64,000 nt of DNA from Raillietiella orientalis (GCA_036172245.1 JAYWIR010000028.1:1054001-1118000); one strand, 5' to 3'. Shown: positions 8,102-55,804, numbered from the stretch's first letter. Translations and numbers: made by a program. Notes: generated by a model from the sequence alone, not told the origin.

Positions 8102-11100
8102 GTGAGTTTCGCTTTCGTCTTTTGTATTTGTGAGCTATCCTCTCCTCCTTTCCTCGTCCTCCACTTTGTTCCTCCCCCTCCCTTCCTCTTCCTTTTCTCC
8201 TCGTCCTCTTCCCCTGCCGCTCTCCTCGGACTATAAAGCACTGCGGTTCGTGAAGACTCCGGCAGGAGCGTTCTCGGCGCCTTCCACTCTGCTGCATGCG
8301 GCGCTTTATGCGGACGCTTCTGGCGTCTTGTCTGGACGTTTCTGACGTTTTTCCGGCTGCTCGCAGCCTCTTCCGCCGCTGTTGCGGTTTATTATTTTCG
8401 GTTTTTCACCAGTCGTTGAGGCTGCTCCTGTCAGGGCGCGCTCCCCGCGATTCCTTGTGAAAACTCCGCCGGAGAGGGGAAGTCTGACGGTCGGCCCGGA
8501 GACCGGAATCGCCTCCAGGTTCCCGTCCTCGATCCGGAAGAACGAGCAGAAGAGAGAGGAAGAAAGAGTACGCTGTCGGCGAAGGCTGAATGAACTTGCG
8601 AACACCCACGGGAATGCGCAAGGGACGGACGGGGAGTGTCAGAACCACCACGTCCTTGCGAAAGTCCGCGTGTAGTGGCGGGCCGGCTGGGGTGTCATTT
8701 CAAAGGATAATAATAATAGTAAAGAAAAACCTCTGGGGAAGGGCCTGCACTTTCCCATAGGCCATCTTCCTCGGATGACCACTCATTTCCCTGCCGCTTT
8801 CCCTCTTTCACCCTCCCAGGAACGGTGTTGTCCCGAGAGGTGCCATCCGGGGCCAACGGCAGCCCCAGCTTGACTGCCGGCTGCGGAAGGCGACCGGATA
8901 TGCCGCAGGTCTCGGAGCAGGGCCGCGCCCCTTCCTCCTCCCTGGAAGAAGCTTTTTTGCTCCCCTGAGCCCATCCTCTCTGTCTGTTCCACTCCTTTTC
9001 GGAGCCCTGGAGCCCATGGGGTCTGGGCAGGGTTTCTCCAAAGACATCTGCGAGCCACCGCTGGAAGAAGCGTGCGGTACCGCTGCTAGAGCACCATTGG
9101 CGCGGGTTGTGGATGTCCATTTGAATGCACCCCTTCTCCAGACGGGGAGGGAAGGACGCACCTGGCCGGCTTGAGCTCCTGGATTTTGCTCGGCGTTCGG
9201 CGGGATCTGAAGTGATGAACGTGGGGTTCTGAAGAGGAAGCAAGAGGTGGGGAGGGGGGAGGAGGAGGTCGTAAGGAGTCGGACCCCTCAGGAAAAAAGC
9301 AGAAGGCGAAGCCGCACACACCTGTGAGTGAGAAGAAGGGGGCGGGGGAGGGGGATGAATCGCAAGAAAAGAGGAGGAAGGACGAAGGGCCGTGCAGAGG
9401 CCGTGGGGTGGTTGGTCTTCTGACCTCTCTGGAGGCTCCTGAAGAGGAGGCACGTGGACAGGTCCTCTTGCGCCGAGTGAAGGAGGGAGGGAGGGCCTCC
9501 CGACCACGCTCTTGCTTCCTTCCCCGGGAGCAGTCTCACCAGGAGAGCTGGACTCGCCTGATGTGAAGCCCGGGGAGGCGGCAGTTCCCACCAAAGTCTT
9601 CATTTCTTCCCCGCCTCCGGCACTGCTCGTGAACCTGGAGCAAGGAAAGTTCTCCCTCTCTCCTCCCCCCAACCTTTTTTCCCGAGTGTTTTTGTGTCTC
9701 CATATCCGCAAGACTCCTCCTCAACCTGCAGCGGGATTTCGGGAAACAACACATCTCCTAACGCCGATTCGGATATTGCCCCCCTCCCCCCTTCCCGACC
9801 TTACTGCGTTTTCCCGTGTCACTTTGCTCTCGGTGACAGCCGCTGCTGCTGCTGTTGGCGCTTCTCTCCTCTCCTGCGCAATTCCTGCATGGGAAAGCGA
9901 CAAGAAGGGAGGAAGAAGAAGGAAAAAGCAACCGGGGCGACTTTCATCCTCCCTGAAGCGACCTCCGGGCGAACAGACGGAAGCTTCCGCGTTCTCAGAT
10001 GTCCTGTGGTGGCAGGACGACAACAGGGACAACGGGCTGCTCGCCGTCGTCAGGAGCAACCGTGCTGATCCCGTCGCAGCCTCTCTGCTTGCTCCTGAGC
10101 CTGTTACGTGGACGTACGCCCAGAGGTGCTGCTCTTGCGGCCATCAGGAGCATCGATGGCGTTTCCTCCGTCCAGATCGGTTTTCCTTTGATTGCTGAGC
10201 AGCCGTCACATGCACGATGGCAACCATGGTTGCCATCGTGCATGATTGTTGGCTTCTCCCCAACAATCGACCAAACAATACTGGCGACGAACATCGTTGA
10301 CAACAATACTGCTGTCGCTGTTAGCAACGTCAACTGCGTGGTTGCTGATCCCTTTGCGATGTCGAGCTTGTTGCGTTATTAATGGCGGTGTTGTTGCGGT
10401 AACAATGTTCATTAATTAGTCACGTATGTGTTGTTGCTATTATAAAGTGTGCAAAAACTTCGCTCCAAATCCGGGCTTATCCGCGTACGCTCATTCAAAA
10501 CTCCTGCGCCCTGCGATCAGCCGAGCGGTCGTCCACTGTCGGAGGTCGCGATGGCAACTAGCGAGAAATTCACTCGCCTCCTGATGCGAGAACTCCGTGA
10601 ACCGTCCGCTACCGCCGAGCTGCTGCCCAATGCCCCATGTCTCATGAAATGTTGCCAAGTCTCGGATCGTCTGGGTGATCGTCTTCCGATTTCCGTGTTG
10701 CCCTTTGAAACGACGGCGTGTCTGCCCCCATCCAGCGGCTTCTTGTTGTCATCCGCGGAGTGCTGTCGTGTTTTTCCCACAGTCCTTCTGCGACGGGAAG
10801 GGGGACGGGGGAGGACACTTGCCGTGCAAGTCATGTTGCCAGGACTTCTGACCGGTGCGCAGACCGATCAGAAGTTCTTCATCTGCGGCACCTCCGTCCG
10901 TCGATTTTGACATCTCGCTGTTTCGTGAAATCCGAAACACATCGCACTGGACTTTTGGAACCCGAAAGGTATTTCCCGTTCGTTCAGAGCACTTTCAAAA
11001 GCGGCCGCCTGTGCGCCCTCTCGAAGACTGTTTCAGGGATCATTGCTGTCTTGCTCGCAGACCAGCTTTTTCGCTACCCTCAGCTCTGAAAACACGTAAA

Positions 11101-26100: not shown

Positions 26101-29100
26101 GGAGAACGTCAGGCTGCTGTAAGCCTAAGCCTCCTGTGCTGAGCGGAAACGCAGAAATGTACTTTCAGGTCACTGAACAACAATCGCATCACGTGCATCT
26201 CCCCCGGCACTTTTGACCACATGACGGCGCTTTCGACGCTGTAAGTTCTCCCGATCCCCGAGGCGTCGTCTCTGTGCCCACACACAACTCGAACCACCGT
26301 GGCTTCGTGCTGGGGAGGATCGCAGGCCGCGATCGTGGCATCTTTTCGAGCGTACTCGCAACCGTACTTTCGTCGCCCGTTTCCAGACACTTCCGTACGC
26401 GCGCCGAGCGCGGACGGTTGCGGATGCAACTCGGCGGATGTTTCGGGCGTGCGCGTACTTCGTTTTTCGTGCTGTGCGGACCATCGCGTACGCATGGCAG
26501 CAAGTGCTCGTCTCGCCAACCCATTCGTCTGGCAGCGTCCTCTTCCCTGGAGCACCCCCATGTTCCCGCAGAAGTCACGAGCTCACGTGAAGATGCGTCA
26601 CGTTGCGAAGCGATTTCGGCGCTTCCTCCTCCGGATCCCCGCACTCTTCGTCCCGTAGCACTTCGTGCTCGAAGGTAGACGCGTTGCATCTGGAAGGCGG
26701 CTGCGGCGTGCGCGGAGGTCGGTCGCTTTTGACTCTCCCTCCGGGTTTCCGAAAGCGGCTGAACAGATCCGCGGAATCGATCACGGAGTCCCGGTTGATT
26801 CTTCGTGGAATTTTCATCAAGAGCGGGGTTCTTCCCTGAACGCACGCTGTTTGTCTTTGCTTTCCGCGAAAAAAAAAAAAAAAAATTAGTGTTCCAACAC
26901 GCCATCTGCCTCGTGAACCGTGGATGACGCATGACGATTTCGGTTCGATGATTTGTGCACCAAGCAGAGTTTACTTGGGCCTCCTGAAAATCCACAATCG
27001 GGTCGCGTTCCTGTTGACGTGTACGAACGCACGGAGCTCTCTCGGAGGAACGAAAGGATGCATTTTGTGTGCTGCACTGCAGGGAGCGTCTGATTGCTTT
27101 GACCGCCCCCGTATGGATTCGCATGGATGCCTAGGAAGATGGCGTACCCTTTGGAGAAACTTGAATGATCAGTGCGCAGCGTCCTTCTTCAGCCTGTTCT
27201 GAAATCCGTTCGGGAAGACGTACTGGTGGCGTCGTGCAGCGAAAGATTTTGATGGAGAACCGGATAAGGCATGCAGGACCCCATCTCTTCGGATCGATAT
27301 TCCGCGCACCTCTTGAGCTTTAAGGCCGCGATTCCGCATCCCCACTTTTCTTCAGACCCGTGTGGCAGCTGCCTTCTTACTCTGGATCGGTTCTCAGAAA
27401 AGGGCATCAGCTGCCGTGGGGTAGGACCTCAGTCTGTTCCGAAGCGATACCGAAATGCTTTAATACCTTGGCGTTCTTTAAACGGCGCGACGCCTCTTCT
27501 TCGACCAAACTCCCCGCTTGCCTTCCTTCTGCACCTCTCCGTCCAGCTTGAGCTGGGCTGAGAGAGGTGTGCATCTTCTTCTCCGTACGGGAGAAAGTCG
27601 GCACATCCTCATCGACTTGCTCGTTCCGGTGCTCAGAAAGGAGACACGCCCATAGGCAGTCCACCGCCCTTCGTTGCTTGCTGGATCGATGTGAAAGTTT
27701 CGGATGCCGCAGAGCGCAAATCAGGGATTCAGAATGAGTCAGTCATGTGAGAAAGGAAGCGATAGTAGAGGGGGAAACCCCTGTCTGGATAACGGATCGG
27801 TGGTTTTCGTTCAGGCTACCTGCGCAAGACTTCTTTGGCCAGCATCTGAACAGGCCCAAGTAGAGGATGCTGGATGGAAGAGTGATTCCCCTTGCATTGA
27901 TTTTAGAATTTGGGAACTTGAAAAACACACACACACACATCGGAGGAGTTCCTTTTTGTCTTTTTCTTCGTCTCTCGATCCATGGAGGACTCACCCGATC
28001 GCGTGAAGTTGGATGCTCTTTCGGTCACGTGCCGCTATTGGCAGGAATTTCAAGAGTGTTGCTGAACGTTCGCACCGCCATCTCGACATGCCTGGTGACC
28101 GGGCATTTGTCCTCCGAAGGCGGAACGAACTCGACTTCGTCGATCGTTTTGAAAATCTTCCGGCTGGTCCACCGTGGATCGAGTCCGTCGGAAGGTCTGC
28201 GTGCTTTCGGAGCTCCATGCATCACGCGGCCCCGAAGGAAGAGGATCTGTTTGCCCGCTTTCAGCATCCGAAAGCGAAACGGCGTCACGTGCGAATGTCT
28301 TGTGACCAGTCCCCGCGCTTTCACTCCCTCACGCCCGACAGTTGGACCTGCGAACCCGTTCTCCGGTAGCGACCACCGTCGCTTGGCTGCTCGTGGCTAC
28401 AAAAGTCAAGCAGCACACGCGCTGGAGAGTGCGCTCGATAATCTGGAGCGTCAGCACCTTTCAACATGTCCCCGGCTGACCCAGAGGTCACCTCTTTTCT
28501 GCGAGCGTCTCTGGCCCGGACCTCTTGTTCAAGAAGAGCGCCGGAGCGCTGTTTCTCCAAAGAGGATAGCAGCCACCGAGAGAATCGTGGTCGTCAGTTC
28601 TGAGGGTTCCCTTTTTTCGTGTTGGACAAAATGGGAGCAAGCAGGGCAAACCACACGGCGCACCCACGAGGTGTCAGCTCGACATGTTTCGTCACTTGGT
28701 GTTTTTTTGCCGGTTGCCATCGAGGTCACGTCCCTCAGGAAGCGGGGCTCCTTTTGGCCTGGGGGAGCCATCATGATCTCGGCGGCTGTAGAAAGCGGCC
28801 AGGAAAGGCAAGGGAAAGTGTAAGGTGAGAGAAGTCCTCAAAGAATAGTCAAGGACTTCTCCTCTCCCTCTCATAATCCCTATTCTTCCTTTTCCTTTCC
28901 CCGAGGATCGCAGTGTTACCGAAGTGAGCCCGAGTTCAGAGGAGAAGAAGCAGCAGGACAGCTTCGTCGTTTCTTGTGCGCGTCCATACCCTCCCACGCG
29001 GTCGCCGGCCGCTCATCCATCGGCATTCCCCTTGTCCGAGGAATTGCCTCCGGGAGTTCTGCGAGTTCTGCGAGCGGAGTCCCCACCACCCGACCGTTCC

Positions 29101-32100
29101 TTGTGCTCAGGGGCGTCCAGGAACCAAGTGCGTTTTCCTCCCGCCAAGCTGTCGTGCGTGGCCACCGCGCTGGAATGCCTTCCGGAAATCCGCTTTACAA
29201 TCACCCCGTCAAGACAAACACAACCAGGGCAAACGCAAGATTTCCAGCTCCCGTACTCCCTAAGGGCACTACCGCGTGGGTTGAGCTTGGAACGGCAGAC
29301 GCCGCCGTGACCCGTGTGGGCACTGCCACCGACCTCTGCTTTCTGGAAACGGAGGGAGCAAAGGGAGGGAAAAGGCGGAGGAAAAAGTGCGCGCGGCGGC
29401 GAGGTGGCGCACCGCTAGCTGGAGATGGGGGGAAGGGGGAGGAGGCGATGCCCCATTTCTGAACTCACATGTGGGTCAGCGACTGGAGGTCCCTGAAGGT
29501 CTCCTGATCGATCATGGACACATCGTTTGAGTGCAGCGACCTACGGTCAGCACACACAAAAAAAAGGATGGGGGGTCGGGAAAAAACCTCGGCGGAGGTC
29601 ACACTCGGCGGCAGAGGCTGCGCCACATAAAGGATGCGGAGATCCCTCCGTCTGTTTTGGAATGCACCCCCGAGAATCGAGATGGGCGGAGCGTCGTGCC
29701 TCCCTGCAGGCATGTGGAAAGGCAAACGGAAAATAGCTGCTGATGAGGCCGCGGTGCGCTTTCGGCGGCTGCTTCAGGGCACCCCGTGCGGAGCTGGAGG
29801 TCCCCATGGCACGCGCGTACACCTGCACGCTCCCATCCTGGCTACTCCTGGCGCGTGCAGCAAGGAAATCATCCAGGAACCCGGCTGCGAGTGCAAGCTA
29901 GCGGAAGAACGAGGGAGTCGTCTGCTGCACGTACACGGCTCCTCGCTCGCTGATGTCGGGTGTTTGCCGTACTCGGAGGTGTACAACAAGCAGACCGAGC
30001 GAGGAAACAAGGGATGGGCTTCCCAGGCGCTGCCGCCTCTCGGGTAGACTGCTGAGTTGCTTTCCTCAGCAGGGATTAAGAAAGGGACGATTAGGAAAAA
30101 AGGTCCACGAGGGAGAGTGAGCGGTCACTCCCTCCGTCGGTGCTCCGCCCAAAAGGAGGAGGACCGAGGAAACAAAAAGACTGGTGGCCTAGCGTTTACC
30201 AGTCTTCTTTTCCGCATCACCCTCTTCTCCCCTCTCCCTTTTTTTTTCTTTTCATTCTCTTCCACTTCCTCTCACTCATCGCCATATTCCTCTTCCTCCT
30301 GCTGATCCTCCTCATCCTTATCGACGCCCCTTCTCAGCGAGCAGATGGTCAGGAAAGCAGATGCCCCCGCTCCATGCTGCCTTCCTGCCACCCCGTGGCA
30401 GCTGGGAAGCCGTCTTCGGCGTGAGGAGGTGCCGTGTCAATTTCCTAGGTGCAGGAGAGTCGTTCCCTCTAGGCGCGTCCTCCATCTGCTACGCGCGGAG
30501 GGGCAGTGCCACTCCGAGCGGCGCCAGCGCACGGTCCTATTGCTCGCCGGCTTTCGTCTCTGTAGCGAGGGTCCGCCGAATTTTCCGGAACGGAGCTCCC
30601 TCCCGAGCGGTTCGCCACTCCCCCTCTTCCTCCCTCTCGGAAGGCCTCCGCCAAACCGATCCCGTCTCTTGCGTTCCAGCAACCTCCAAGGAAACTCGTT
30701 TCACTGCAACTGCCACCTGGCCTGGTTCTCGGATTGGCTGAAGAGGAGGGAGATCTTGACAGGCATACCCAAGTGCGAGTACCCCCTCAGGCTCAAGGGC
30801 GTGCCCATCCAGGACGTGCCTGCCCAGGAGTTCCGCTGCTCAAGTAAGTTCCTACCTCCCTCGTTCGCGACTTGCGTCGACGCGCTCTGCTGGCTTACGT
30901 GTGCGGTGGACGCGCAACGACGGAGGTGAGATGCGCCACAGACGGCGCTCTAGGTCCGTCTCACCACCATTGGGGCGCCGCGGCGGCTCCGCTTTCTGAG
31001 GTTCCCTTCGTTTCCGATCCCAGGGAGAACAGGGAGAGGAGAGACTCTCCCTGAGGGAGGTCACCTTGACGACTGCTCAAAGCCTACGGGAAAGGCAACA
31101 GAAGTTGTACAAACGCGAGATGCCTCCCGTAGGTCGCCAACGCAATCGGGTCGGCTCCTCTCGTGCTCTTCACGCGTTGCCCCTACTGCTCCCCTCCCGT
31201 TCCATCGCAGCCCACCACGCGAAAGTCGTGTTACAGGTTGGACTGCAGAGAAGGCGGGATGCCCCTCCCCTCTTTCCCCTTTGTCCATAGGTCAGGATTC
31301 GGTCGGAAAGGTCTGCCGAACTCGGGAGCACGCAGTCTCCCTCGCTTCCTCAGGCGCTTTCCTGCGAGAGCGGTTCCCGAATCCTGCCGACCTGGAGAAT
31401 GAACTCCCCCTCCCTCTTTTCCGTCCCTCTTTTTCGCTCTGCTTTCTCCCAGAAGGCGGCGACCAGACCTGCCGGGGAGAAGGTTACTGCCCTCCGAAAT
31501 GCAGCTGCCTCAACGGCATCGTTCGATGTAGCCGCGCCTCCCTGAAGGACGTTCCCGAGGACATCCCTTTCGACACCAAGGAACTGTAAGGGGGCTTCTC
31601 CCTCCCTTCGCAGGATCCAAGAACCTACTCCTACTCTCCCCCCAGGTATCTAGACGCGAACGACATCTCCAGCATCCGACCGGAGAGACTGAGCTACCTG
31701 CCGTACCTGTCGAGTCTGTGAGTGGGGGAGGGCGAACTGGGGGAGTCCAGCCAACACCGGCGATCGCCTTCCAGCGATCTGAGCAACAACAACATCACGG
31801 TGCTCCAGGACAACGCGTTCAGGAATCTGACCCTCCTGTCGACGCTGTGAGTATCAGGAAGCCACGGTACCACCACCCATTCCATCCCCTTCCTCACATC
31901 TTCCTTCTTTTTTTTTTTTTTTATCTTCATCCGCTTCCTCCTCAACACCATCATCTTCATCGGCATCATCTTCTTCCTCCTCCCTCTCCTCCTTTTCCCA
32001 CTCATCGTCTTCCTCATCCTTTATCCCTCCTTCTCCTCCTCCTGTTCGCTGAGCGAGTGACTTCCGGGTTGCACCTCCCCCGATGGACCCGCCTGAGCCC

Positions 32101-35100
32101 TTCCTTTGCCTTTCCTTTCCACCGCGGAGGCTCCTTCGTGGTCCGCCGCACCCTTCCTCGGGACCTTTTTTTTTTTATGTGATTTCCCTGCCGTGCCGCC
32201 ATCCACCCCGCATTCCTCCCTCTCCCCCACGGGCAGCGATCCGCACACCTTTGCACTCTTCCGTCTCTTCCAGGATCATCAGCTACAATAAGATCCAGTG
32301 CATCGAGAAGGACGCGTTCGCTGGGCTGAGGGATCTCCGCATCCTGTACGTGGCGCAGCCTCCGCCTGCGAGTGCGACCCCCGCCAAGCTTTTTCCTACC
32401 CCCCATCCTTTTTTTTTTGTGTTGCCCGTAGGTCGCTGCACTCAAACGACGTGTCCATGATCGAGCAGGAGACCTTCAGGGACCTCCAGTCGCTGACCCA
32501 CATGTGAGTTCAGAAACGGGGCATCGCCTCCTCCCCCTTCCCCCCATCTCCAGCTAGCGGTGCGCCACCTCGCCGCCGCGCGCGCTTTTTCCCCTGCATT
32601 TTTCCTCCCTTTGCTTCCTTCGTTTCCGGAAAGCGGAGGTCGGTGGCGGTTCCCACACGAGTGATGGCTGCGTTTTCCGTGTCCTCTAGTGGAGGATAGG
32701 GAAAGCCAGGGAGCTCCTTTCGTGAGGAAGAAGGGTCAGGAGGGTGCGGCGCCTCTGCTCCTCCTTCGTTTCTTCCCCCAGACACCGGATGGCCCGGTGG
32801 TCTTCAGAGCCGCTTCCAGATGAGGGCTTCTCCCTTCCCCTCGCTGCTACCCCTTAGGCAGCTTCAGCGGGTCGTTTCACCGGGTCGGGGAAGACGAGGA
32901 ACGGGTGTGAGGGAAGGTCACGAGGGGTATCCTTCCAAGGACCCTTTCACCCCTATGCGCGAACCTCGAGCTCACGCCCACAGGAGGGGAAGGAAGAGGG
33001 AAAGGAGGAAAGGTGGGTGCGGCCTCCTTTCAGGGGGTTGGTACCTACTCCGAGCGTGGTCAAGGGGTGTCCACCGGGGTGAGAGATGCGGGGGGAACCC
33101 CCCGCGCCACATGTCCGGGAGTGGAGGTGAGGAGGCGTCGCATCGAAGTCTCGCCGAAGAAACCGCGCGAGCGGGGCTGCTCGGCTCAAGGCGCGCGCCC
33201 ACATCGCCGCCCCCTTGGTGTGATGGTGTCAGCTGGGGATCAGGAGACCCAGAGCCCCGCTCTGCCGAGCTCCCATCGCAAGCCGCTTCTTCCGGGGAGC
33301 TTCACGGAGGATGTGGGAAGGCGCACGCTGCCGGTTCCTCCCTTCCCTCCATGCCTCATCTTCCTCCTCCTCTGCCTCATGGCCGCTGAGCTGACCAGCG
33401 CGGGTGACTTGGCCCCCCGGTGTCCCCTGACCGCAAAAGCTCCTGCTCGGGGCTGCCCTCGCGATGCCGAAAACCCAAGTCCCGTTCCCGCCTTCGACGA
33501 GATGCGGTTTGGGTAGGAGGAAAAGGAAGAGAAGGAGGAGGAGGAAGCAGATGGAGAGAAGAAAGAGGGGGGGAAAAAGGAAGATGAAGATGATGCTGAC
33601 GAATGGGAGGAGGAGGAGGGAGAAGAAAATGATGATGGTAGCAACGAAGAGGGGAAAGCGGATGAAAAGGATGAGCAGAAGGAAGAGGATGACCATGACG
33701 ATGACGATGATGATGAGGAGGAGGAGGATGCGAAGGAGGACGAGAAAAAAAAAGGAATATGTGGATAATGAGGAAGAGGAGGGGATGAGTGGTGGTCCCG
33801 TGGCTTCCCGACATTCACAACGTCGACAGGCGGGTCAGATCCCTGAACGCTTTGCCCTGGAGCACCGTGATGTTGTTGTTGCTTAGATCGCTGGAAGGCG
33901 ATCGCCGGTGTTGACAGGACTCTCCCACTCACAGACTCGACAGGTATGTCAGGTAGCTCAGAGCCTCTCCGGTCGGATGCTGCTCTCCGTTTCTCAGACC
34001 CTCCTGTTCGGGTTTTGTGCCAAGATGGCCTCTTCTGGAAGCGGTTGCTCTCATCTGCCTTGAGAGGATCTCCGACTCGCTGCGAGGAGTGATCCTCCCT
34101 TTTTTCTTGTTTTGGGCGTATGCTCAAACCCTTCTTTTCCCTTGTCCTCCCTGATTCATCCGTTGCTGGGAAAACCGCACCCTCCTTCAGTCCTCTCCCT
34201 CCGCCATTTGCTTTTCTCCTCTTCTTCCTGTTTCGAGTGGAAAGCTCCTCTGGCCGCCGACAGGACCTCTTGCCTACGAGGACCCTCAGACCGACTACAT
34301 CCCCTTTCCCGTGGTCCTTCGACTAAAGGGGAATCGGCCCGTTGCGCGTGGCAGGCGGGAGGAATGAAGACGGACGGAAGCGTACGTGGGGATCGAGTTG
34401 GGGACTTCTCGCTTCCTTCCACGCTGTCTTCCTTGGGGAACTCCTCATTCCCCACTTCGCACTTTCCAACCCTTCTTTCCATCAAAAGGGGAAGATCGCC
34501 AGAGTGGCGTGGCGGCGAGAATTTTCCCCTTTCCGCTCGCAGGATGCAAAGAAGGGAGCAGTCATCCCGTTTGAGTATGAATAGGAGGCGGGACCTAGGG
34601 GATTTCCTGCTTCGCTGTCGCCTGAGGCGAAGATCTCACCTTCCCTCTCTTCCGCCCCCCGAAAGGCGCTTCACTGATAAAAAGAGAGGCAGGAGTGGAA
34701 GGGGAAAAAAACCTCTCCAACGGGGAAGAACAAGAGCGGAATGGTTCTTCTATATCTGTCTATCTATCGATAGGGGCTTCCGGACTCTATCGAGGGTGGG
34801 ATGGCGGGTTACGCGCGCGCGATTGCCCTCTTAAGAAATTCCCTGCCCCATCCCCCACTCCCTTCTCATTGGAGGTCTTCAGCGGCGCGTAACGGTGGCA
34901 TATGCGTCAGAGCGGTGCCTCCCCTACCACCAGTCCCACCGTCGTATCTCGATCTTCCAGAGTGCTGGGAGCGAACCCACTATACTGCGACTGCAACCTC
35001 AAGTGGCTGGGCGCCCTCGTAAAGGTGAACTTTGTGGAACCCGGCATAGCCAGATGCGCCGAACCTCCAACCATGAAAGACAAGCTGCTCCTGACCACGC

Positions 35101-38100
35101 CCACCAACATGTTCGTGTGCACCGGTGAGCAACTCCTTCATTGCCGCACGCTCGGCCCGATGGACTTCTTCCCCTCAGACGGGGGAGGTCTGCTTCCGCG
35201 CATGGCAAGAAGCACCTCCCCTGTGCTCGTACGCTTCCCGTTTGTTCTGTTTGTTTGTTGTTCGGCCCGTTCCGCTGACAACGTTTTTCACTGCCCCAAA
35301 CCTACGAGGTCTTTAGTTGTCTGGTGACGTCTCCGTTTAGCCCATCTGCATGCAGCATCCGTGCCTTCTTTTTCGCACGCAGATTCATTTGAGAAGCCTC
35401 GTTGGACGCTCCATTACTTCCTTGACAATTTTTGTGACCATCCTCGAGCCTTCCTCGTCAGATCAGGCAAACTTTTCCAGAGCTTCTCGGTTCCCTCTCT
35501 TCCGGGGCTAGAACGGATTTCTGAGTCTACCATCCTGTGGCGCAAGGAAGCTGCAGGATGCTGTGGAGATGACCTCGCTTCAGCTGCATGCTGGCATCGA
35601 GACCACTGATCTTCTCTTCCGTTATTCTTCTCTCCCGATAGTGATCCACCCGCTCTTCTTACAAGGTGTGGCTCTGCTCTTCTGTGCTTTGCGTACTGGA
35701 CGATCATTGTCTTCAGGGCTGTACTTACGTGTTCCCGTTGTTCCATCGCTTCGGTCTGATGAAGAGGATCCGTTTACCTGCCTCGTGCACAAGCCGCGGA
35801 GGAAGCGCGTGCGTGCTTTTCCTTTTTTCTTTACTCAGCTCGATGCCAAGGAGTGCTTTCTTCTCCCGGTCTTCGTTCTTCGAAGTAGCCATGGGCTCGT
35901 GTGCTCTCTTGAGGCTTTCTCGGTGATTTCCTCTGTAGAGCCTGGAATGAACCCTTCGAATTTGTTTGCGACAACTGACCAACTTCTCTTCACCGGGACT
36001 TTTCTTTGACCCCCTTCATGGATCATCGTCCACGCCATTCATCCAGAATACCATTTTCTTCCCTCTTGCTTTTTCATGGTCCGATGGATTTGGTTCTGTC
36101 TGCTTCCCCTTTTGTCTGTTCTTTGCCTGCTACCGTTCAACACCGGATGTTTCCGCCTTCGCTCCCGTGACTTCTTGTCTGGATTTTCATGATTCTATGC
36201 CTTCAGCACCCGTTCTTGCCAAGCCTGACTGTTGGGAAGAGGTCCGTGCACCTGCGGGAAGTGCACCTATTGCTTCTTCACCCGTTTCCAGTCTCCGAGC
36301 TTCTGAGGTTTCATCTCAGCCTTTCGGGGTACGGGCTAAGGGAGTTTGCGCCTTGAGCTCTGCGGCGCACCCGTTTCCCGATTCCTCCGGCCTCGAAGTG
36401 CTCCTTTCATCATGCTTCGCGCCGGTGCGGTCAGAAAATTGATTTCTCCAAACTGCCTTCTTTTTTTCTTTTCTTTTCTCGTGCCAGGACTTGTTCTATT
36501 CTGTTTAATTTTGCGCGCTCTCGTCCCAGATTTCACCAAGGATTTGATCCCTCGATGCGAATCGTTAATCCAAGAGACAACGCAGATGCTTCCCGAGCGG
36601 CATTCGCTCTAGTAGTCAGCGCTCGAGCAGGAAAAGTCTCTCCCTCGCTATGTGTTGTGAATGGATGCCGATTCGTTGCCAAGTCACCGTCAGTTGGTCA
36701 TTACGACCGTCTCCAAACAAACTTACAGTCGAAGAAAAAAAGAAGAAAACAAAGCTGGGCAGAGATTTGGTGAACTCATCTCGTGTCTGCATGTTAATGC
36801 ATCGCTTCATGGGATCCTTGTCTATGTTCCATGATTTAAAGACATCGTTAAACAGTGTTGTAGGGGGGCCGAGGGAACACATACTGTGCAATACACGAAA
36901 GATAGATCATCCCAAGCTGTAAAATGTAGGTGTTGGTGGACTTTGGGCGGCCTCGTTGTTGTTGCTATTTTTTGTGGGGCGTTTTTTTTTTTTTCTTTCT
37001 TTTTGTTTGGAAGAAGAAAATTGGTGATTGCATCACCGATAAGTACGAAAACACGTCGAAAGATGAAGCAGGATGAGTTTTCCAATACCGCAGCCGTGTA
37101 GGCGTTTATGCAACCGCGAGGATCGCGCACCATCGCTGTAAAGAAACGTTGATGAAAATCTTCTTATTGCAATAGAGATGCCCGCAAAAGTTTGTGATGG
37201 TCTCTTCTTGGATTGCGTGCATCTCTTTGCAAGAGAAAGCAGAGAACCCGAAAAATGCCTCTCTCGGCAAGAGGTGGGTTCCTCGACTAGCGAGGACCAC
37301 AGCAGCGCGAATTCGCTTGGGTGCCGACGCAAAAGAGTTCGGTTTTTCGCGGCGCGGTCGTGGACATTGGACATTGGTCGGATGCGTTGCTTTTCCTTTT
37401 TTTCAATTCAGGAGCGGAAGCGGAGTGGAGCAGGGGGGATCGCCCGTCGGCAACCTTCCATCTTCAATGTTAAAACCAACAGACTCCTTATGTTCGGAAT
37501 TTTCAAGTGAGAGCACCGGGGGAAACAGGAGGAACCTGAATACGACTGCGGACCGATTGACGATTCTGCAACACGAAGCAGATAATCGCTTGCCTGTCGC
37601 GTGATGATGGGATGAAAGGAAAGCTGAGCCTCTCTTTGGAGCGTACTGCCTTGACCACGACGTGACCACTTTTGATTAAGGGCGAAAGTGAAGCGATTCC
37701 CGGCAACCGCTTGGGCACAGTTTGTTTTCTCGCGTTTGCCAGGTCGGTGTTCCTGCCTCAGATCTTCGATTCGGCCTTCGAAGTGCGACCGGAAGAACGT
37801 TCAAAAAAAAAGTGATTTCGTTAGTAAACGCGAGGATATTTCACGTTGTGAAACGGAACCTGGAGCGAGTCCAACGTCACCGAAGAAGTGTGTGGGACGA
37901 CATTCCTTCCTTCGTTCCTCCTTCGTTACGGAGTGACGTCATGCTGTCACGTGAACGAACGCTGAAATGTTGGATGGATATGTGGAAAGACCTGGAAAAC
38001 TTGTATGACTCGGGAGTCTCATATTTCGGTCATCTTCCGAGGTTCCAGACACTTTGGCAGTGGAACATCGACAGAAGGCATTTCTGCCAAATTACGAGAG

Positions 38101-41100: not shown

Positions 41101-44100
41101 CACGCAGAAACGCTTTTCTGCGTGGTCTTCCCATCTTGGAAGGGAAGAGGTTTGAAAAGAGAACGAAGCTGAACGGCAGCCATAAGTTTCACATTTAAGC
41201 ACTGGGTCGCCTATTGTGCGTGAATGTATTGTGATCTGATGCTGTGGTATCGTGACTGAGGTTACCATCCAAATGTTTACTATGATATGGAGGCGTCTCC
41301 ATATCGTGGTAAACATTCTGTGCATCAGGAATGATGCTGTTGGATTCCGGATTTCCATGTGGGTTTTTGGAACACATAAAAGCAAAGAAACACTCCACTA
41401 ATTTTTTTTTTTTTTTTTTTCCCTGCTGATTTTGTGGTTCACGAAGCACAAGAGCACCTAACAGATTTAGAAACATTCGTTCCTCTGATATGCCTATCTG
41501 CCGGTTTCCCGCTTCTCGTGGGTGCCTTGTGATCAGCTTGGCAACCACAATGGATCAAAGTGTGCCGCTCCTGGTGATACCGAAATGCTCAAAAGCAAAA
41601 GCAATTTTTAGAGGCGAAAGAGAAACAGCTCTCTCAGCTTTCCCACAATAATGAGCCAGTTTGAGTCAGAGTGGAATGATCCAGTGGCGGACAAATGGAT
41701 CGCCGGAAACTTCAGGATTTTCGTGCGTACTTGGGCGCATCCCCAGGGAACGTATGGAGGTCGGTGAGATGCATCATCTTGAGACTGCTAAAGAAAGTCT
41801 GGAGGATTCACACAGCGGTTTTCGACTGCTGGAGTTTTCGCGATCGAGAAAGAGATGCACCCATCCTAGTAGAGCAACCGACGAGCTGAGTCCCCTAAGA
41901 AGCTGAAGAGGAACGGGTGGTGCTAGAAACCTTCCTATCATGAAGATGCTTGGAGCGCGTTGCCGTACTCAAACGGAAGGAAAGGAAGAGCGTGCGTGCA
42001 TGGAAAGGAAAAAATGAGGCCGTGGAATCTCTTCCTCTTAGTAATCGGATTCTTCTGTGACCGTCTCGATTTTTGCTTATTCTTTGGCAGCCACGATCAG
42101 ATAACCTCATAAAAGCGCGCGCCGCGTTTCGGCCTTTGCAGGACGGAAAATACGATCGCCCAATCTGGAGTTGTTCATCGAGGCAGCAATAGGGCACACG
42201 CACAAGAAACAAAAAAAAAAAATAGAGAAAGTTTTCCGAACTAGTCGAAGGGCGTTGAAAGCTGTTGGTGATTAGCACGAGCCCAACGAGATTCTGGTTC
42301 GTTATCTCGTAAGGCTCAAGAGAAGAACTCAGCTGATGAGACGTAGGAAACACGGAAGCAGCCATGGTTCATTTTTTACAGAAGAACGATGCCGACGTCG
42401 TGATCCTTAGGGAGCGAATGCACAAGGAATGGCAGGCGGAAGCAAGCAGACCTACCAGATCTATTGCGAACGGATGGATAAGATGGAAGTCGATTGGAGG
42501 AATCATTTTTTTCGGTTTCTCGAGGTCCCCCAAGACTTGAGAATACCAGTTTTGTCCCTAAGGAGGGAAGAAGAACTCGAGTGAGTGAATCAGATCGAGC
42601 GCGATTTAGAAGAGCAGAGAGAAAGACCGGGATGGCTTCCAAAGAAAGACGAGAGGAAGAATAATGTAATCAGTTGAAAATCTCCAGGCTTCGAGAACCT
42701 GGAGATGAGGTGTGGATCCATGTTCGTTTTCTGCAATGATGCCGTACGTGTTATTCTGCACTTGACCTGTTCATGATAACTCCCATAGAACGAAGCGTTC
42801 GGATGGGACAGTGGATATCTCTGACGTAAGGGTGCTGATTGAGCCGAAGATTCGCTTGCAAAGAACGAAATCACGGTTTCCGATGTCGCTGAAAACTGCT
42901 TCATCCTGCTTTGGAAACCGTAAAGTTCATTCGATGAACGCATTGAAGCGGCATCCGACAACGAAGTGGAAGAAGTGAAGGTCACCTTTGATTCGCACCC
43001 GTTTTCTTCGGGGCGTTCACTGTAATCGACAAACACACAAAATTAGTAGGAGCGCAGGCCCCTCAGCAAGTCCTACTAAATGAAAAGCATCTTTAGTAAA
43101 ATCGGGATTTTTTTTTCCCCCCGCTTCGAACTCGACTGAACACTCCTCAAGTGACGCCCAACATCTGTTTGTACGTCTTCGCATAGCGGCACACCCAGAA
43201 AAATGCATCACCAGGAAACCCAAAGAAAGAAAACCGTAAGATTTCATCAAGGGAATTTGAGAACACCTAAAGCAAAGAGGGAAATAGTTTGGAAAGAAGA
43301 GTGTGGGTCCGTTCATGCTGAAAGGCGCACTGTGGAGAGGACACCGGGAAACCTGAAGAGTCTGAAGGGATACCGGCGTACCATCCATCAGTGTTAGTAG
43401 TAATTGAAGACAGCAGCAGACGACTGTATTGGGAGAAGGGAACATGAATACTGACTGTCGTCAGAAATCGATCTGAAACCCTCGTGCAAAGAGACCTTTT
43501 TTTTCTCAGACGCTCGCCAAACAGCACATTGACTGGGAATTGAGGGAGGAGTTCCTCGTTACTGAAGCTCCCTCGATGAAGAACAGGACAAAAGCGAATG
43601 GAAGGGGGGGTCTCTCTCGAAATCACTCGCGAGGCTTCCGAGGAAACGGAATGCCGGCCGAATTTCCAGCGGCATACCAGAAGATCCTGTTCTTCAGGAG
43701 AAATGAATCTGGATAAAAAAAAAAAAAAAAAAAATCAGGGATGGCCGTGAGAAAGACCGCGACGACCGTCAGAAATGAAGCATAAACAACGGGAAAGCGC
43801 ACTGCGCACACAAAACAGACAGAAGCGTATCCCGGTGAAGCAGTGTTCCAGTTTTGGGTCCCGCATTCTGGTCCCCTTCAACTGCAGAAACTCATGAGGA
43901 AAAGAAACAAGAGGCTTGTGGGGGGGAGGGGGATTTTCGTTAACGGGGAAGGAAGGAGGCTAAGAGCAGCACAAAGTCTCGAAGCAAACGAAGAGAATAC
44001 GACAGGCCACCAGCAAATAGCTAAGCTCCACCACACAAGGAGCCTTCGCAAAGAAAATGGACAGGCGGGGCACACGGAAGGGTTGAGGAAAGTTGGATCC

Positions 44101-44495
44101 GCAAAGCTCTCGAAAGAAGGAAAGATCATTTTCACTCGGAGAGTCAAGTGTTGTGGATGGCCTTTAGATAGACAAAAACGGATAATGCCAGGGAAGCGGA
44201 GCACGGATATAAACGAGTATCCATCGAGAAGGACCTGCGAAAATCAAGAGAATCTACGAAACTATCTAAAGGCCATCCACAACATCCACACGTGTTTGGT
44301 TTCCACAGAAATTCCCGACTTCCTCCCTTACTTTTACCACTTGGGTGCTTCACAGAAAGTCTCTTGTGGATTTTTGTGTGTGCTCGTTTAGAACCTTATT
44401 TTTTTTGGCCGGGAGTCGCCAGAGCCACACTATAACAGTAGATTCCACCTCTCATTTCTTGTACTCTCTCTATTAACTCATGCAGGTCGCATGTG

Positions 44496-44531
<36 letters not shown>

Positions 44532-46282
44532 CCTGATTGCAGTCCACGCTCTATCTCTGTATTCGATCGCGAAAAAGCTCGATAGATGTTTCCTTGTAGG
44601 TGCTTCCGGTGTTGTGGATGTTTTGGATTTGTTTAGAAATAATGTTTTTATAAAGGTGATTGCCACTTTAAGCATCGTTCCCGTGGCAGACTTATAAAGT
44701 GGATACCGCTCAACTCCTCTGTTTTCTCTGCATCCTAGATTGCTTCAGGGTCCAGCGATTCGATTGGTACTTTGTGGTCAATACGTGTGTTTTGGTCTTG
44801 ACTGAATGCACGAACGATCGGGTCACGTAAACGCGTGCACAAATCATTACGGAGCATGAAAAGCAAATTTCAAAAAATATTCGGATGAATTGATCCACAA
44901 CACTCAACTCTCTGAGTGAACCGATCTTTTCTTCTTCTTTCGTATCCCTTCTTTCTTTCAAGAGCTTTGCAGATAGAACTTTTCCTCAACTCTTCCGTGT
45001 GCCGTCTGTCAGTTCTGTTTGCGCAGGCTCCTTGTGTGGTGGAGCTTAGCTCTTTTCCGTTGGACCATCCTGTTTTCTTCGTTTACTTCGAGACTTTCTC
45101 TCCTATGTGTTTGGATCTCCTTCCTCGAGGACTTCGAATTTCCCGTTCTCTCTCTCTCTCTCTCTCTCTCTCGATGTTTCTCTCTCTCTTTTGTGGGTGC
45201 CCGGAAGACCACAGCAATTAGGTGTGTGTGCCGGTTGGATGGAGCTCAACTACACGCACTTCCGCAAGGTTTCCATGTTGACCATAGGGAAGCTGCACTT
45301 GCAAGAGATTCGAACTTTTTGTCTCAGCAGTTCGTGATTCTTTCGTAATGTTATGTCGAAAAAAATTTGCTGCTTCATTCGATACGGAGTGACCACTTCG
45401 CGCTACGCTTCGCCGCAAAACCAGGCTCGAGGGGGAAGGACGTTTCAAGTTGCTATGTAACGTAGCTTGCCATGGTAAATTGAGTCAAAATAAAGTACAA
45501 GCCGAAGTTTTGCAAAAAAATCATTACATTCGTCGTCGAATTCTTTTTCAAATCTCGCGTTCGTCTTTATCGAAATCTGCATCGGTTTGCATTGGAAAGT
45601 TTACCGATTTCATACCAAGGTCGTTGTTGTTACGAACCCATCTTTAGTCAGGGAAAGCTAATGTGGATTTTGTTTTGCACATTTCCTTCAGGATGCTTGG
45701 AACGCCTCATGATGAATCAGCACGTGGTGAACCTGGGATCGGTGGCGAAAGAGCACAAGGTGCATCCCGGATGCATCGAGAACGACGTGATGCCAGCGGG
45801 AAACTTCCATTACGAGGACGACATGGAAGTCGACGAACCGCCATCTTTGCAGGACGAAAAGCCGAAGGTCCCATACAAATCGGACCCCTGCGCCGACGCG
45901 AAATGCGAGAACGGAAGGTGCGTCCCGAGAAAGGATGGTCTCGATTTCCGATGCATTTGCAAAACGGGCTATGGAGGAAAGTATTGCAAAGGTAGAGAGA
46001 GAGATGCCTGCCGCCTACAGGTTTCAGAATCATCACGCGTTCTTCCTGCTTCCAGCTCCGACTTGTCAGAAGGAAAAGTACCGGGATCACTATTTGGAGA
46101 ACGGTTGTCGTAGCCGAAAACCCATCACGAGCGCACGATGTTTAGGCCCTTGCGGAAAAAACTGCTGCATGCCAAAGAAAATGAAAAGAAGACGGGTACG
46201 GTTCATATGCAACGATGGAACCAGCTACAAAAAAGAGATAGAAGTAGTGCGTAAATGCGGGTGTTCCAAAAAATGCTACTGA
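7966..46282 (+). CDS. slit: Slit axon-guidance ligand, 5'-partial, 26 exons in window
   Basis: join(7966-8101,11661-11732,15018-15089,15211-15282,15374-15445,22677-22748,24249-24400,24455-24605,24653-24799,26047-26118,26169-26240,30680-30843,31453-31585,31646-31717,31775-31846,32274-32345,32432-32503,34961-35124,38902-39118,39192-39331,39383-39552,39634-39847,39951-40185,40259-40482,45692-45991,46056-46282). All introns are GT-AG with compatible phases. The domain order LRR D2-D4, EGF1-6, LamG, EGF7, cystine knot ending [12 protein letters not shown] is diagnostic of protostome-type Slit. Confidence 0.97.
10209..10244. repeat. Perfect 36-bp palindrome in a slit intron
   Basis: CATGCACGATGGCAACCA|TGGTTGCCATCGTGCATG is its own reverse complement. 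Confidence 0.95.
11661..11732 (+). CDS. slit: slit exon w2: 72-nt LRR (D2)
   Basis: ttccag|[23 protein letters not shown]|gtaagt. Confidence 0.93.
14171..14340. repeat. Degenerate ~40-bp minisatellite, about 4 copies
   Basis: Units start near 14181, 14221, 14261 and 14301, each with a GGG(G/T)TC(C/T)CTTC(A/G)GAG-like core followed by a purine-rich stretch and (T/C)CCCT. Confidence 0.7.
15018..15089 (+). CDS. slit: slit exon w3: 72-nt LRR (D2)
   Basis: ttgcag|[23 protein letters not shown]|gtgagt. Confidence 0.93.
15211..15282 (+). CDS. slit: slit exon w4: 72-nt LRR (D2)
   Basis: ctgcag|[23 protein letters not shown]|gtaagt. Confidence 0.93.
15374..15445 (+). CDS. slit: slit exon w5: 72-nt LRR (D2)
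   Basis: tttcag|[23 protein letters not shown]|gtgagt. Confidence 0.93.
22677..22748 (+). CDS. slit: slit exon w6: 72-nt LRR (D2)
   Basis: ttccag|[23 protein letters not shown]|gtgagt. Confidence 0.93.
24249..24400 (+). CDS. slit: slit exon w7: LRRCT cap of D2
   Basis: [35 protein letters not shown]...FE|gtgggt; the donor of the 54-nt in-frame intron is inferred. Confidence 0.88.
24455..24605 (+). CDS. slit: slit exon w8: LRRNT cap of D3
   Basis: ggcag|[49 protein letters not shown]|gtgagt. Confidence 0.9.
24653..24799 (+). CDS. slit: slit exon w9: two LRRs (D3)
   Basis: cccag|[48 protein letters not shown]|gtatgt. Confidence 0.92.
26047..26118 (+). CDS. slit: slit exon w10: 72-nt LRR (D3)
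   Basis: ttgcag|[23 protein letters not shown]|gtaagc. Confidence 0.92.
26169..26240 (+). CDS. slit: slit exon w11: 72-nt LRR (D3)
   Basis: tttcag|[23 protein letters not shown]|gtaagt. Confidence 0.92.
29292..29648 (-). pseudogene. Inverted intronic copy (A') of slit 32328-32680: 3' end of exon w16, the intron, exon w17 and downstream intron
   Basis: The reverse complement reads RDLRIL...[23 protein letters not shown]. The w17 copy (29540-29469) is 70/72 identical and keeps AG/GTGAGT. The copied w16 donor has changed from GT to TT. Confidence 0.92.
30680..30843 (+). CDS. slit: slit exon w12: LRRCT cap of D3
   Basis: ttccag|[54 protein letters not shown]|gtaagt. Confidence 0.94.
31453..31585 (+). 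CDS. slit: slit exon w13: LRRNT cap of D4
   Basis: cccag|[43 protein letters not shown]|gtaagg; the acceptor is CAGAAG, so the start could be 31456. Confidence 0.92.
31646..31717 (+). CDS. slit: slit exon w14: 72-nt LRR (D4)
   Basis: cccag|[23 protein letters not shown]|gtgagt. Confidence 0.92.
31775..31846 (+). CDS. slit: slit exon w15: 72-nt LRR (D4)
   Basis: ttccag|[23 protein letters not shown]|gtgagt. Confidence 0.93.
32274..32345 (+). CDS. slit: slit exon w16: 72-nt LRR (D4)
   Basis: ttccag|[23 protein letters not shown]|gtacgt. Confidence 0.93.
32432..32503 (+). CDS. slit: slit exon w17: 72-nt LRR (D4)
   Basis: ccgtag|[23 protein letters not shown]|gtgagt. Confidence 0.93.
33515..33982 (-). 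pseudogene. Inverted intronic copy (B') of slit ~31670-32045: 3' part of exon w14, the intron, exon w15 and pyrimidine-rich intron
   Basis: The w15 copy (33890-33819) reads [23 protein letters not shown], is 66/72 identical and keeps AG/GTGAAT. The w14 copy has a +2 insertion. The left boundary is in low-complexity sequence and is approximate. Confidence 0.9.
34961..35124 (+). CDS. slit: slit exon w18: LRRCT cap of D4
   Basis: ttccag|[54 protein letters not shown]|gtgagc. Confidence 0.94.
38902..39118 (+). CDS. slit: slit exon w19: EGF1 and start of EGF2
   Basis: aatag|[24 protein letters not shown]...[28 protein letters not shown]...RF|gtaact. Confidence 0.93.
39192..39331 (+). CDS. slit: slit exon w20: end of EGF2 and EGF3
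   Basis: ccaag|[46 protein letters not shown]|gtcggt. Confidence 0.9.
39383..39552 (+). CDS. slit: slit exon w21: EGF4 and start of EGF5
   Basis: gctag|[23 protein letters not shown]...[23 protein letters not shown]|gtgagg. Confidence 0.91.
39634..39847 (+). CDS. slit: slit exon w22: EGF5, cleavage linker, EGF6
   Basis: ctcag|[16 protein letters not shown]...[22 protein letters not shown]...CKCYPGFT|gtattg. Confidence 0.93.
39951..40185 (+). CDS. slit: slit exon w23: laminin-G (ALPS) domain, part 1
   Basis: tacag|[11 protein letters not shown]...[37 protein letters not shown]|gtttga. Confidence 0.93.
40259..40482 (+). CDS. slit: slit exon w24: laminin-G domain, part 2
   Basis: tgtag|[37 protein letters not shown]...PLFIGGVP...[10 protein letters not shown]|gtagga. 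Confidence 0.93.
44149..44284. repeat. Perfect 23-bp inverted repeat with a 90-bp spacer (MITE-like or fold-back)
   Basis: TGTTGTGGATGGCCTTTAGATAG (44149-44171) versus CTATCTAAAGGCCATCCACAACA (44262-44284); no TSD seen. Confidence 0.88.
44498..44530. repeat. (TG)n microsatellite
   Basis: About 16 uninterrupted TG units. Confidence 0.95.
45147..45172. repeat. (TC)13 microsatellite
   Basis: Directly visible. Confidence 0.95.
45692..45991 (+). CDS. slit: slit exon w25: end of LamG, acidic linker, EGF7
   Basis: ttcag|[14 protein letters not shown]...HPGC...[13 protein letters not shown]...[13 protein letters not shown]|gtagag. Confidence 0.92.
46056..46282 (+). CDS. slit: slit terminal exon w26: C-terminal cystine knot
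   Basis: tccag|[22 protein letters not shown]...[39 protein letters not shown]. Confidence 0.94.
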
Positions 46283-54433: not shown

Positions 54434-55804
54434 TCTTAAATAAAAGTATAAAGCATGCAGGATAAACCACCACAAAAAAAATTGCGCAGGTTAGCCAAAA
54501 TTGAAGACACAAACGCTCTTTTATTAAAATATTATATTTTTTACACAGTAATGGAATTGATCTGTTGGAATTGTTGACCCCTGTTGTTTTCTTATTATTT
54601 ACATTTAATAAGACTTTCTTGAAAACAGGTTAATACATGGACTGTTGTTATGAATTTTAGAAAAGAAAGCACTTAACTAGGAATGGGAAAGCTCTAATTG
54701 TAGCTATTTTTGTGCTGACATATTTCATTAATAGGAAACTAAGATAAAACTCTTTTAAAAAATAGGTATCTGAAACTGAAAATTCTGTTTACGAGTGGAA
54801 TAATAATATTACCTTAAATGCATGTATTTTTCTTATTGTATATGTGTGTGTAAAAAAAAGAATTACATTCATATTCAGTATAATTAGTAATATTAGTAAA
54901 ATTACAATTAGTATATTAATATTAATCAGTTTAATCAATCTAGTATATTAGCAAAATTGCAATCATATTTAGTATTTCAAAATAAGGTGGGCAATCAGTT
55001 TAAAAAGGTTAATTCTCTTGTACCCTTGTTGATACTCGAATTTCTTCTCTTTCATATAGTACCTATATTCAAACTTTAACAGGTCACCAGTTTTGTAAAT
55101 TCAAAATCATTCAGTTAAGAAGAGCTCACTATTAACATCATTATCTACTTTCACATGAATCCTAGAGATATTCTAAAGTTTCCTTAAAACAGAATTAAAG
55201 AATTTATTTGAGTGACATGTTATGATTGTCTGGACTACGATACTAATGGCTTCATTTATCCTCTCTATGCACTAGACACCTCTCTATCCTGTTTAAATCA
55301 ATAATACGCTAATTTTGTTGTATCGTTTGTAAAAATAATTCCACATGTTCAGTTCTCAGTTTAAATAAATCATTAATATGAAATTATATATTTACTTATT
55401 GGTAATGTAGATTGACTGAACTTCTAAGTTAGGTAACGATTTGATTTATCCTTATGGACAAATGTGTTTCTTTTTTCTTTCTAGTAACTATCGAGATTAC
55501 AAAAACCAGATTCCTGTTTACAAATTTCTATTATCAACTTCTATGGGAAAATGCCTAGGCTTCTATCACTGATTCATATGATGGGGAAAAAGTTAAACTT
55601 GGTATCAAACGCTAATTAATGAAAAGCAAGTGTGCAGTCACTGAAAATCAATAGTAATACAACGCCAATGCTTTTCTTCCGCTGAGAATCGAAAGTCGCT
55701 GTCGATGACGTGCTCCCGTGTGAGCAGCCGTCCGTCGTCATGGCCGCCAACGAGCCGCCTCCCGAAAGGGAGGCGGCCACCTCCACCCCACCATAACCAC
55801 ACCA

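Follow-up and report, generated by a model that had tools for sequence, protein, structure and literature searches.

Inverted, interleaved copies of D4 exon-intron segments in the introns of Raillietiella orientalis slit: old and probably neutral insertions

What does it mean for a gene to carry backward copies of its own exons inside its own introns, and does it make any use of them? We address this question for the slit gene of Raillietiella orientalis, which occupies the plus strand of the 64-kb window of DNA analyzed here (64,000 nucleotides; GCA_036172245.1, JAYWIR010000028.1:1054001-1118000). Two neighboring exon-intron segments from the region encoding the leucine-rich repeat (LRR) domain D4, termed A and B, recur in inverted orientation in the flanking introns as A' and B', in the order A', B, A, B'. 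A preliminary description of this locus had read the arrangement as a candidate splicing or editing switch built from competing RNA duplexes, with neutral rearrangement debris as the fallback. Our analysis favors the latter: A' and B' are probably old inverted templated insertions that are now decaying, carry patches of gene conversion and have no role for the gene.

The copies themselves are secure. An ungapped repeat scan of both strands of positions 28000-35500 recovered five inverted pairs and no direct repeat family (Table 1). In gapped BLAST, A and A' share 89.9% identity over 357 columns, with 4 gap columns and 32 substitutions (E 9e-136), and B matches the robust part of B' (33606-33982) with 77.0% identity over 392 columns, 37 of them gap columns (E 6e-81). 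The ungapped blocks of B/B' are 89-93% identical, apart from the weak 91-nt block at 71%. Self-comparison of the whole window at E<1e-10 returned four pairs only, two of which are A/A' and B/B', so the arms do not stand among many other local repeats. Searches with 10 Slit queries found antisense slit-like pieces in just two places across the window: in A', the copy of w17, and in B', that of w15. On this evidence A/A' and B/B' are a real, statistically secure and old structural feature of the assembled sequence. The scan and the alignments thus uphold the pairing of A' with A and of B' with B that had been proposed, and the coordinates bear out the interleaved order, hence the crossing of the two pairs. 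The arms were also correctly described as exon-derived; each holds one whole exon (w17 in A, w15 in B), however, rather than two.

The pairs differ in how much of their length is informative. The robust core of B spans ~230 nt (31670-31900), whereas the 3' part of B/B' is of low complexity; a weak additional match there (33515-33603 versus 31956-32040; 72%, E 6e-5) lies inside TC/GA low-complexity sequence. TC-rich tracts of similar make-up occur on the plus strand at 30200-30320, upstream of exon w12, and at 31880-32040, in the 3' part of B, with no significant BLAST homology between them. Compared with B, B' has an expanded GA-rich part (33515-33760).

Because the arms hold introns and partial exons, they are copies of genomic DNA and not of complementary DNA or messenger RNA. 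Both A' and B' have sharp junctions. In 14 local alignments (scores 8-14.5), neither the spacer of 288 nt that separates B from A (32040-32327) nor sequence from farther out turned up again beside A' or B'; three of the 14 scored a little above the highest value from 100 mononucleotide shuffles (13.5, 13.5, 14.5), the equivalent of ~14 matched bases, which does not make a homologous segment. Since spacer and flanks are uncopied beside the arms, A' and B' are two discrete insertions, and we rejected the candidate that they are remnants of one contiguous inverted copy. A staggered-break inversion was likewise rejected by reasoning: it would yield the same crossing order, but would need A' next to B, A next to B' and the intervening exons inverted, neither of which holds. 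No target-site duplication was seen at either insertion, as the flanks of A' share only a 5-mer (chance 0.43), those of B' share none, and there is no direct word of at least 6 nt; nor were terminal repeats found around A' or B'. Transposon families of Pfam matched none of 12 flanking open reading frames (ORFs), two of which matched LRRCT or LRRNT and are real exons, and Rfam gave 0 matches in the window. We therefore picture neighboring D4 segments of ~360-400 nt each, intron included, as having been copied at the DNA level and placed in inverted orientation into the flanking introns, through either one complex rearrangement or two events of similar age. The likeliest cause would be template switching in replication or templated break repair, after which the arms would have drifted as non-coding intron sequence.

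The divergence of the arms speaks to both their age and their mode of decay. Intron parts differ at 30/263 positions (11.4%) in A/A' versus 12/96 (12.5%) in the B/B' core, a similarity that points to one event, or to two of similar age. Exon parts differ at 2/90 positions in A/A' and 9/120 in B/B'. When the plus-strand arms are read as RNA pairs, 15 transitions give G·U and 17 give A·C, alongside 21 transversions; this balance gives no sign that pairing has been preserved. The B/B' core contains 24 gap columns in 240; among them are a deletion of 15 nt and insertions of 7 nt and 2 nt, the last of which shifts the reading frame of the w14 copy. Four of the six differences in the w15 copy are non-synonymous; the w17 copy in A' shows two differences, one synonymous and one changing E to D. 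The real exons, unlike the decayed copies, are collinear with Slit orthologues. Where exon and copy differ, comparison with 42-46 orthologue segments mostly found a third residue in the orthologues, and at one w15 position the R of the copy is nearer the K/R of the orthologues than is the L of the exon. Overall, the decay of the arms looks neutral. The fallback reading of neutral debris hence gains from the lack of a G·U excess, the indels of B' and the changes in the w15 copy, while the low-divergence tracts described next keep a functional reading alive.

These tracts, one in each pair, stand out from a divergence that is otherwise much higher: the flanks of the A tract differ at 33 of 199 columns (16.6%). 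Permutation tests, which correct under a uniform rate for the tracts having been picked after inspection, seldom reproduced them. In A/A', a run of 118 columns with at most one difference (32466-32583) was reached by 0/5000 permutations, and 158 columns with three differences by 1/5000; in B/B', the 72-column tract with three differences was reached by 10/5000 and the longest run with at most one difference by 4/5000. By half-rate tests, which lack that correction, the A tract is too clean even with one arm alone free to change (half the flank rate, P 7e-4), with a single difference in its 80 intronic columns (P 0.008), and the B/B' tract at half the flank rate gives P 0.016. None of the three differences inside the A tract is of wobble type. 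The tracts are too alike for exon constraint alone, which leaves gene conversion or selection on both arms. Intrachromosomal gene conversion is ordinary between inverted repeats a few kilobases apart, and it appears the simpler reading of the tracts. Occasional conversion from arm to arm may have re-homogenized 120-160 nt in A/A' and 60-70 nt in B/B', as the pattern suggests. The copying of non-coding flanks, the sharp junctions and a divergence more heterogeneous than one-arm constraint allows are what would be expected of a DNA-level inverted segmental duplication with gene conversion; conversion, rather than selection, as the cause of the heterogeneity is what we infer.

Whether the copies could matter to the gene depends on the exons that they pair with. 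The high-scoring segment pairs (HSPs) of tblastn searches with Slit proteins run collinearly along the plus strand from ~7.8 kb (D2) to ~46.3 kb (the C-terminal knot), and D1 is outside the window or unmapped there. Known Slit proteins consist of four LRR domains with N- and C-terminal caps, then EGF repeats, a laminin-G domain and a cystine knot at the C terminus, and the order of the gene agrees with theirs. Among the 229 proteins compared, the nearest were insect Slit proteins and Logan entries, and the best overall identity was 685/1341 (51.1%). As the nearest protein is just 51.1% identical and insect Slit is among the nearest, the host is, on protein comparison, an arthropod-type slit of a lineage without a near relative on record. 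A protein search with the ORF of the EGF region found no Slit of a close species (354 matches at E<=1e-5 among 820 candidates; Slit proteins among the matches listed were 41-50% identical), and one with w18 found no close relative (892 matches at E<=1e-8 among 902 candidates; the best 120 were 62-74% identical). Metagenome contigs compared with w18 gave 16 loci, 13 at 62-71% and 3 at 36-46% identity, and no close relative.

Exon borders were taken from the sequence and verified by script (Table 1). Every exon from w12 to w18 has an AG acceptor and a GT donor; w12-w17 total 585 nt in an open frame, and w17 and w18 are joined in frame. Exons w14-w17 correspond one-to-one and collinearly to the four D4 LRRs of Slit orthologues. 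Alignment and splice sites agree with the assignment to D3 and D4 and with the exon coordinates given earlier, and the exon lengths, open frame and w17-w18 join bear out the in-frame skipping arithmetic (w12-w17, 585 nt, and the other skips proposed). Since the LRR exons of slit are 72 nt long and all in the same phase, however, in-frame skipping is general to the gene and is not specific evidence for a switch. The composition of the window shifts sharply inside slit, from 55-61% GC up to ~36 kb (one 2-kb bin at 50%) to 44-49% at 36-52 kb, with 33-37% at 52-56 and 60-64 kb; the inverted copies A' and B' fall in the GC-rich part.

In the precursor messenger RNA (pre-mRNA), the arms are predicted to pair strongly. 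The energy predicted for the A'/A duplex is -693.5 kcal/mol and that for B/B' is -538.0 kcal/mol, compared with -187 to -219 kcal/mol for the three mismatched pairings (A'/B, A/B' and A'/B'). The nested minimum-energy fold of 29250-34020 contains 321 A'-A pairs and 0 B-B' pairs; once A' is taken out, as would follow from the splicing of its intron, the fold gains 313 B-B' pairs, which include the w14 donor and both the acceptor and the donor of w15. The competing topology put forward in the preliminary description is thus reproduced as a prediction, the duplexes being mutually exclusive in nested folds. Because they cross, the two duplexes are alternatives: forming both in full would require threading one strand repeatedly through a closed loop. 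As A' is transcribed first, A precedes B' and A'/A is the more stable, A'-A is predicted to have both a kinetic and a thermodynamic edge. Exons w12-w15 would then be looped out, and the w16 donor, intron 16 and w17 would lie buried in the stem. In terms of loop-out by inverted repeats, A'-A brackets w12-w15 and B-B' brackets w16-w17, with stable stems predicted for both; in terms of exon complementarity, A' is complementary to 70/72 bases of w17 and B' to 66/72 of w15. The arms may therefore form very long, mutually exclusive duplexes in the pre-mRNA, with A'-A the stronger and the earlier. Any effects on splicing, editing or small RNAs would, in our proposal, be a tolerated side effect and no maintained switch.

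The alternatives differ in how much use the gene is supposed to make of this pairing. If A'-A and B-B' were the two states of a maintained pre-mRNA switch, their competition would decide between a complete D4, a D4 shortened by in-frame skipping of 72-nt LRR exons, no D4 at all (w12-w17, 585 nt) and the production of circular RNAs; we regard such a switch as unlikely. The same grade applies to its modeled states, in which A'-A would loop out w12-w15 while burying the w16 donor and w17, and B-B' would bury w14 and w15 while looping out w16-w17. A switch would sit well with cognate energies far beyond those of the mismatched arms, with the mutual exclusion of the duplexes (321 versus 0 pairs; 313 once A' is removed), with the position of the low-divergence tracts at the splice sites of w17 and the acceptor of w15, and with skips that are all in frame. 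Precedents are also found in loop-out skipping by inverted Alu elements (PMC13019027), competing pairings (PMC6071210) and the Slit2 D4 homodimer (PMC2693880). Against this stand substitutions with no bias toward preserving pairs (15 versus 17), the absence of wobble-type changes among the three A-tract differences, the decay of B' through indels, the generality of in-frame skipping among the 72-nt exons and the one-to-one match of w14-w17 to orthologues as constitutive LRRs. The stronger proposition, that slit's own exon-intron segments form a bistable switch under selection, with the w17 and w15-acceptor tracts as its selected parts, which would toggle full-length, D4-shortened and D4-less (dimerization-deficient) isoforms or circular RNAs, seems to us rather more doubtful. 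Another use would be as a source of double-stranded RNA (dsRNA) in cis, with exon-bearing duplexes feeding ADAR, for hyper-editing or recoding of w17 and w15, or Dicer, for small interfering RNAs (siRNAs) against slit, and so a form of self-regulation. The arms, of 357 and ~390 nt with 90% and 77-89% complementarity, are far above what dsRNA-binding enzymes need, and A' would cover nearly all of w17. Drosophila hairpin RNA (hpRNA) loci whose arms are homologous to target-gene exons do yield siRNAs (PMC10317233). Such loci, however, are discrete units whose arms lie side by side; they do not have arms separated by 2-3 kb across the target's own exons; intronic dsRNA is mostly nuclear and is lost with the intron, and nothing in the DNA sequence speaks for editing. 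We consider self-regulation through dsRNA quite improbable.

Two further explanations concern origin rather than use. Gene fragments might have been captured by a transposable element, either a Pack-type DNA transposon or a Helitron-like element, and have landed back in slit. Transposable elements are present in the window (an element with terminal inverted repeats at 43973-45097 and a decayed non-LTR, that is, non-long-terminal-repeat, retrotransposon at 55.7-58.3 kb), and capture of fragments with their introns is typical of the capturing kinds of element. Around A' and B', by contrast, neither terminal repeats nor target-site duplications were found, no transposase or helicase domain appeared nearby (Pfam, 12 flanking ORFs) and no further homology links the flanks of the two copies, which makes capture very improbable. 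Least credible of all, to the point of being hardly tenable, is an assembly artefact, with chimeric fold-back reads or wrongly joined haplotypes as its source. Divergence between the arms is 10-23%, mostly from substitutions of all classes, and argues against a technical duplicate, because such a duplicate, like a second haplotype, should be almost identical; nor does an artefact agree with two separate inverted insertions that have sharp junctions, in a window without N.

Several observations weigh against our preferred reading of neutral, decaying insertions. A duplex that controls splicing would be conserved in just the places where the tracts lie: over w17 and its two splice sites, and at the w15 acceptor. 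Conversion and selection on both arms are indistinguishable from one genome, and conversion explains the tracts equally well; the choice of tracts was post hoc, a caveat that bears on the uncorrected half-rate tests. Both copies come from one domain, bracket it in crossing order and make up two of just four repeats in the window, which is striking for pure accident, though one complex event would account for it. A duplex of 357 bp and 90% identity that buries a constitutive exon ought to do harm, yet it has persisted to 11-17% divergence. A functional role in splicing, editing or siRNA production is unlikely and finds no support in the sequence, which gives no sign of use. Given that conversion accounts for the low-divergence tracts equally well, that pair-preserving substitutions are not in excess and that B' has decayed, we lean to neutral debris over a switch.

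Either outcome would be informative. If the duplexes act, slit would be a natural case of a gene that determines the composition of its protein product through pairing between its exons and their inverted copies. The domain concerned would be the one that in vertebrate Slit2 mediates homodimerization and binds heparan sulphate (PMC2693880), and competing RNA structures could be said to arise in one step through inverted segmental duplication. If, as is likelier, they do not act, the locus would be a clean example of an essential gene's long tolerance of a 350-bp inverted repeat that buries an exon. It would equally be an example of gene conversion between an exon and an intronic pseudo-copy, a process by which mutations could enter a conserved exon.

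Other features of the window were noted in passing. An intron of slit contains a unit of ~1.1 kb (43973-45097) bounded by 150-nt inverted repeats (43973-44122 and 44949-45097; 83% over 151 columns), inside which lie a short inverted repeat (~44150-44171 and ~44264-44285) and a (GT)n run (~44499-44530). The unit resembles a foldback element or a non-autonomous DNA transposon. A perfect 36-nt palindrome at 10209-10244 is one of the four self-matches of the window at E<1e-10. At 55724-58305, a GC-rich island (59.5% GC in AT-rich surroundings) carries frame-broken plus-strand ORFs with Exo_endo_phos (E 4e-6) and RVT_1 (E 5.6e-11) matches and is, by these domains, a decayed non-LTR retrotransposon. 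On the minus strand, 60914-63334 holds an 806-aa open frame, rich in serine and acidic residues, without a Pfam match at E<=0.01, which may be a large exon of a neighboring gene on the opposite strand.

Table 1. Positions of slit exons, inverted copies and low-divergence tracts in the window
Feature	Position	Strand	Remarks
Exon w12	30680-30843	+	164 nt; D3 C-cap (LRRCT); AG/GTAAGT; aligns to Tribolium Slit 636-695; Pfam LRRCT
Exon w13	31453-31585	+	133 nt; D4 N-cap; Pfam LRRNT below curated cut-off
Exon w14	31646-31717	+	72 nt; D4 LRR 1
Exon w15	31775-31846	+	72 nt; D4 LRR 2
Exon w16	32274-32345	+	72 nt; D4 LRR 3; donor GTACGT
Exon w17	32432-32503	+	72 nt; D4 LRR 4
Exon w18	34961-35124	+	164 nt; D4 C-cap (LRRCT)
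A'	29292-29648	-	Inverted copy of A, in the intron upstream of w12
w17 pseudo-exon in A'	29468-29539	-	Near-intact; AG and GT retained; tblastn HSP 29539-29468; 2/72 bases differ
A	32328-32680	+	Source: last 18 nt of w16, intron 16 (86 nt), w17, 177 nt of intron 17
B	31670-32039	+	Source: last 48 nt of w14, intron 14, w15, ~190 nt of TC-rich intron 15
B'	33515-33982	-	Inverted copy of B in the w17-w18 intron; robust from 33606; 33515-33605 GA-rich low complexity
w15 pseudo-exon in B'	~33818-33889	-	Decayed; tblastn HSP 33889-33809
Inverted pair	29292-29563 / 32409-32680		272 nt, 91%; ungapped repeat scan
Inverted pair	29554-29648 / 32328-32422		95 nt, 79%; ungapped repeat scan
Inverted pair	31738-31896 / 33769-33927		159 nt, 89%; ungapped repeat scan
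Inverted pair	31907-31997 / 33664-33754		91 nt, 71%; ungapped repeat scan
Inverted pair	31689-31730 / 33920-33961		42 nt, 93%; ungapped repeat scan
A/A' low-divergence tract	32426-32583	+	3 differences in 158 columns; w17 acceptor, w17, donor, 80 nt of intron 17
Partner of A tract in A'	29389-29546	-	Coordinates from alignment
B/B' low-divergence tract	31752-31823	+	3 of 72 columns differ; 23 nt at the 3' end of intron 14 plus 49 nt at the 5' end of w15

How does this locus compare with known systems? A non-exhaustive literature search, from which we claim no absence, surfaced no described crossing, exon-bearing inverted self-copies in a gene's own introns. One likeness is to inverted Alu pairs, which promote loop-out exon skipping (PMC13019027), and to inverted repeats that drive the formation of circular RNAs: slit shares with them long inverted repeats in one pre-mRNA, predicted stems that bracket exons and in-frame products. 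The slit arms differ in copying the gene's own exon-intron segments and not transposons; each stem includes a constitutive exon with splice sites, the stems cross, and skipped or circular products are a prediction.

In Dscam, competing pairings reportedly act in mutually exclusive splicing and are said to have originated through duplication. Competing pairings that steer exon choice in such splicing have been described, with a proposed duplication origin (PMC6071210); the predicted slit pairings are likewise mutually exclusive. Slit, by contrast, is without a cluster of alternative exons, its arms are 350-400 nt long and include exons where Dscam docking and selector sites are tens of conserved intronic bases, and the repeats are inverted, not tandem. 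No tandem exon variants of the Dscam type were seen (0 direct repeat families in 28000-35500), and in place of a single docking site with several selectors, the locus has two independent one-to-one pairs.

Exon-complementary intronic sequence is also a hallmark of ADAR editing sites, and A' and B' are complementary to w17 and w15, respectively. Known exon-complementary sequences for ADAR are short and imperfectly matched, and most lie in the intron next to the exon, whereas in slit an entire segment has been copied and its copy is found five introns upstream (A') or two downstream (B').

Allen et al. are reported to have described in 2004 an inverted duplication of a gene fragment that gave a long hairpin. 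Slit would resemble such hairpins, including Drosophila hpRNAs, whose arms are homologous to exons of their target genes (PMC10317233), in having a long hairpin with perfect-to-good homology to the source gene. Those hairpins are separate loci that act in trans via small RNAs, whereas the slit copies lie inside the gene's own introns and would pair in cis; no discrete transcription unit of the hpRNA type is evident at the locus, the arms being inside slit introns and exons. Finally, palindrome arms homogenized by gene conversion share with A/A' and B/B' the character of inverted copies made at the DNA level, with sharp junctions, similar age and patchy identity. Where such arms form one fold-back palindrome, slit has two insertions from adjacent sources, interleaved with those sources.

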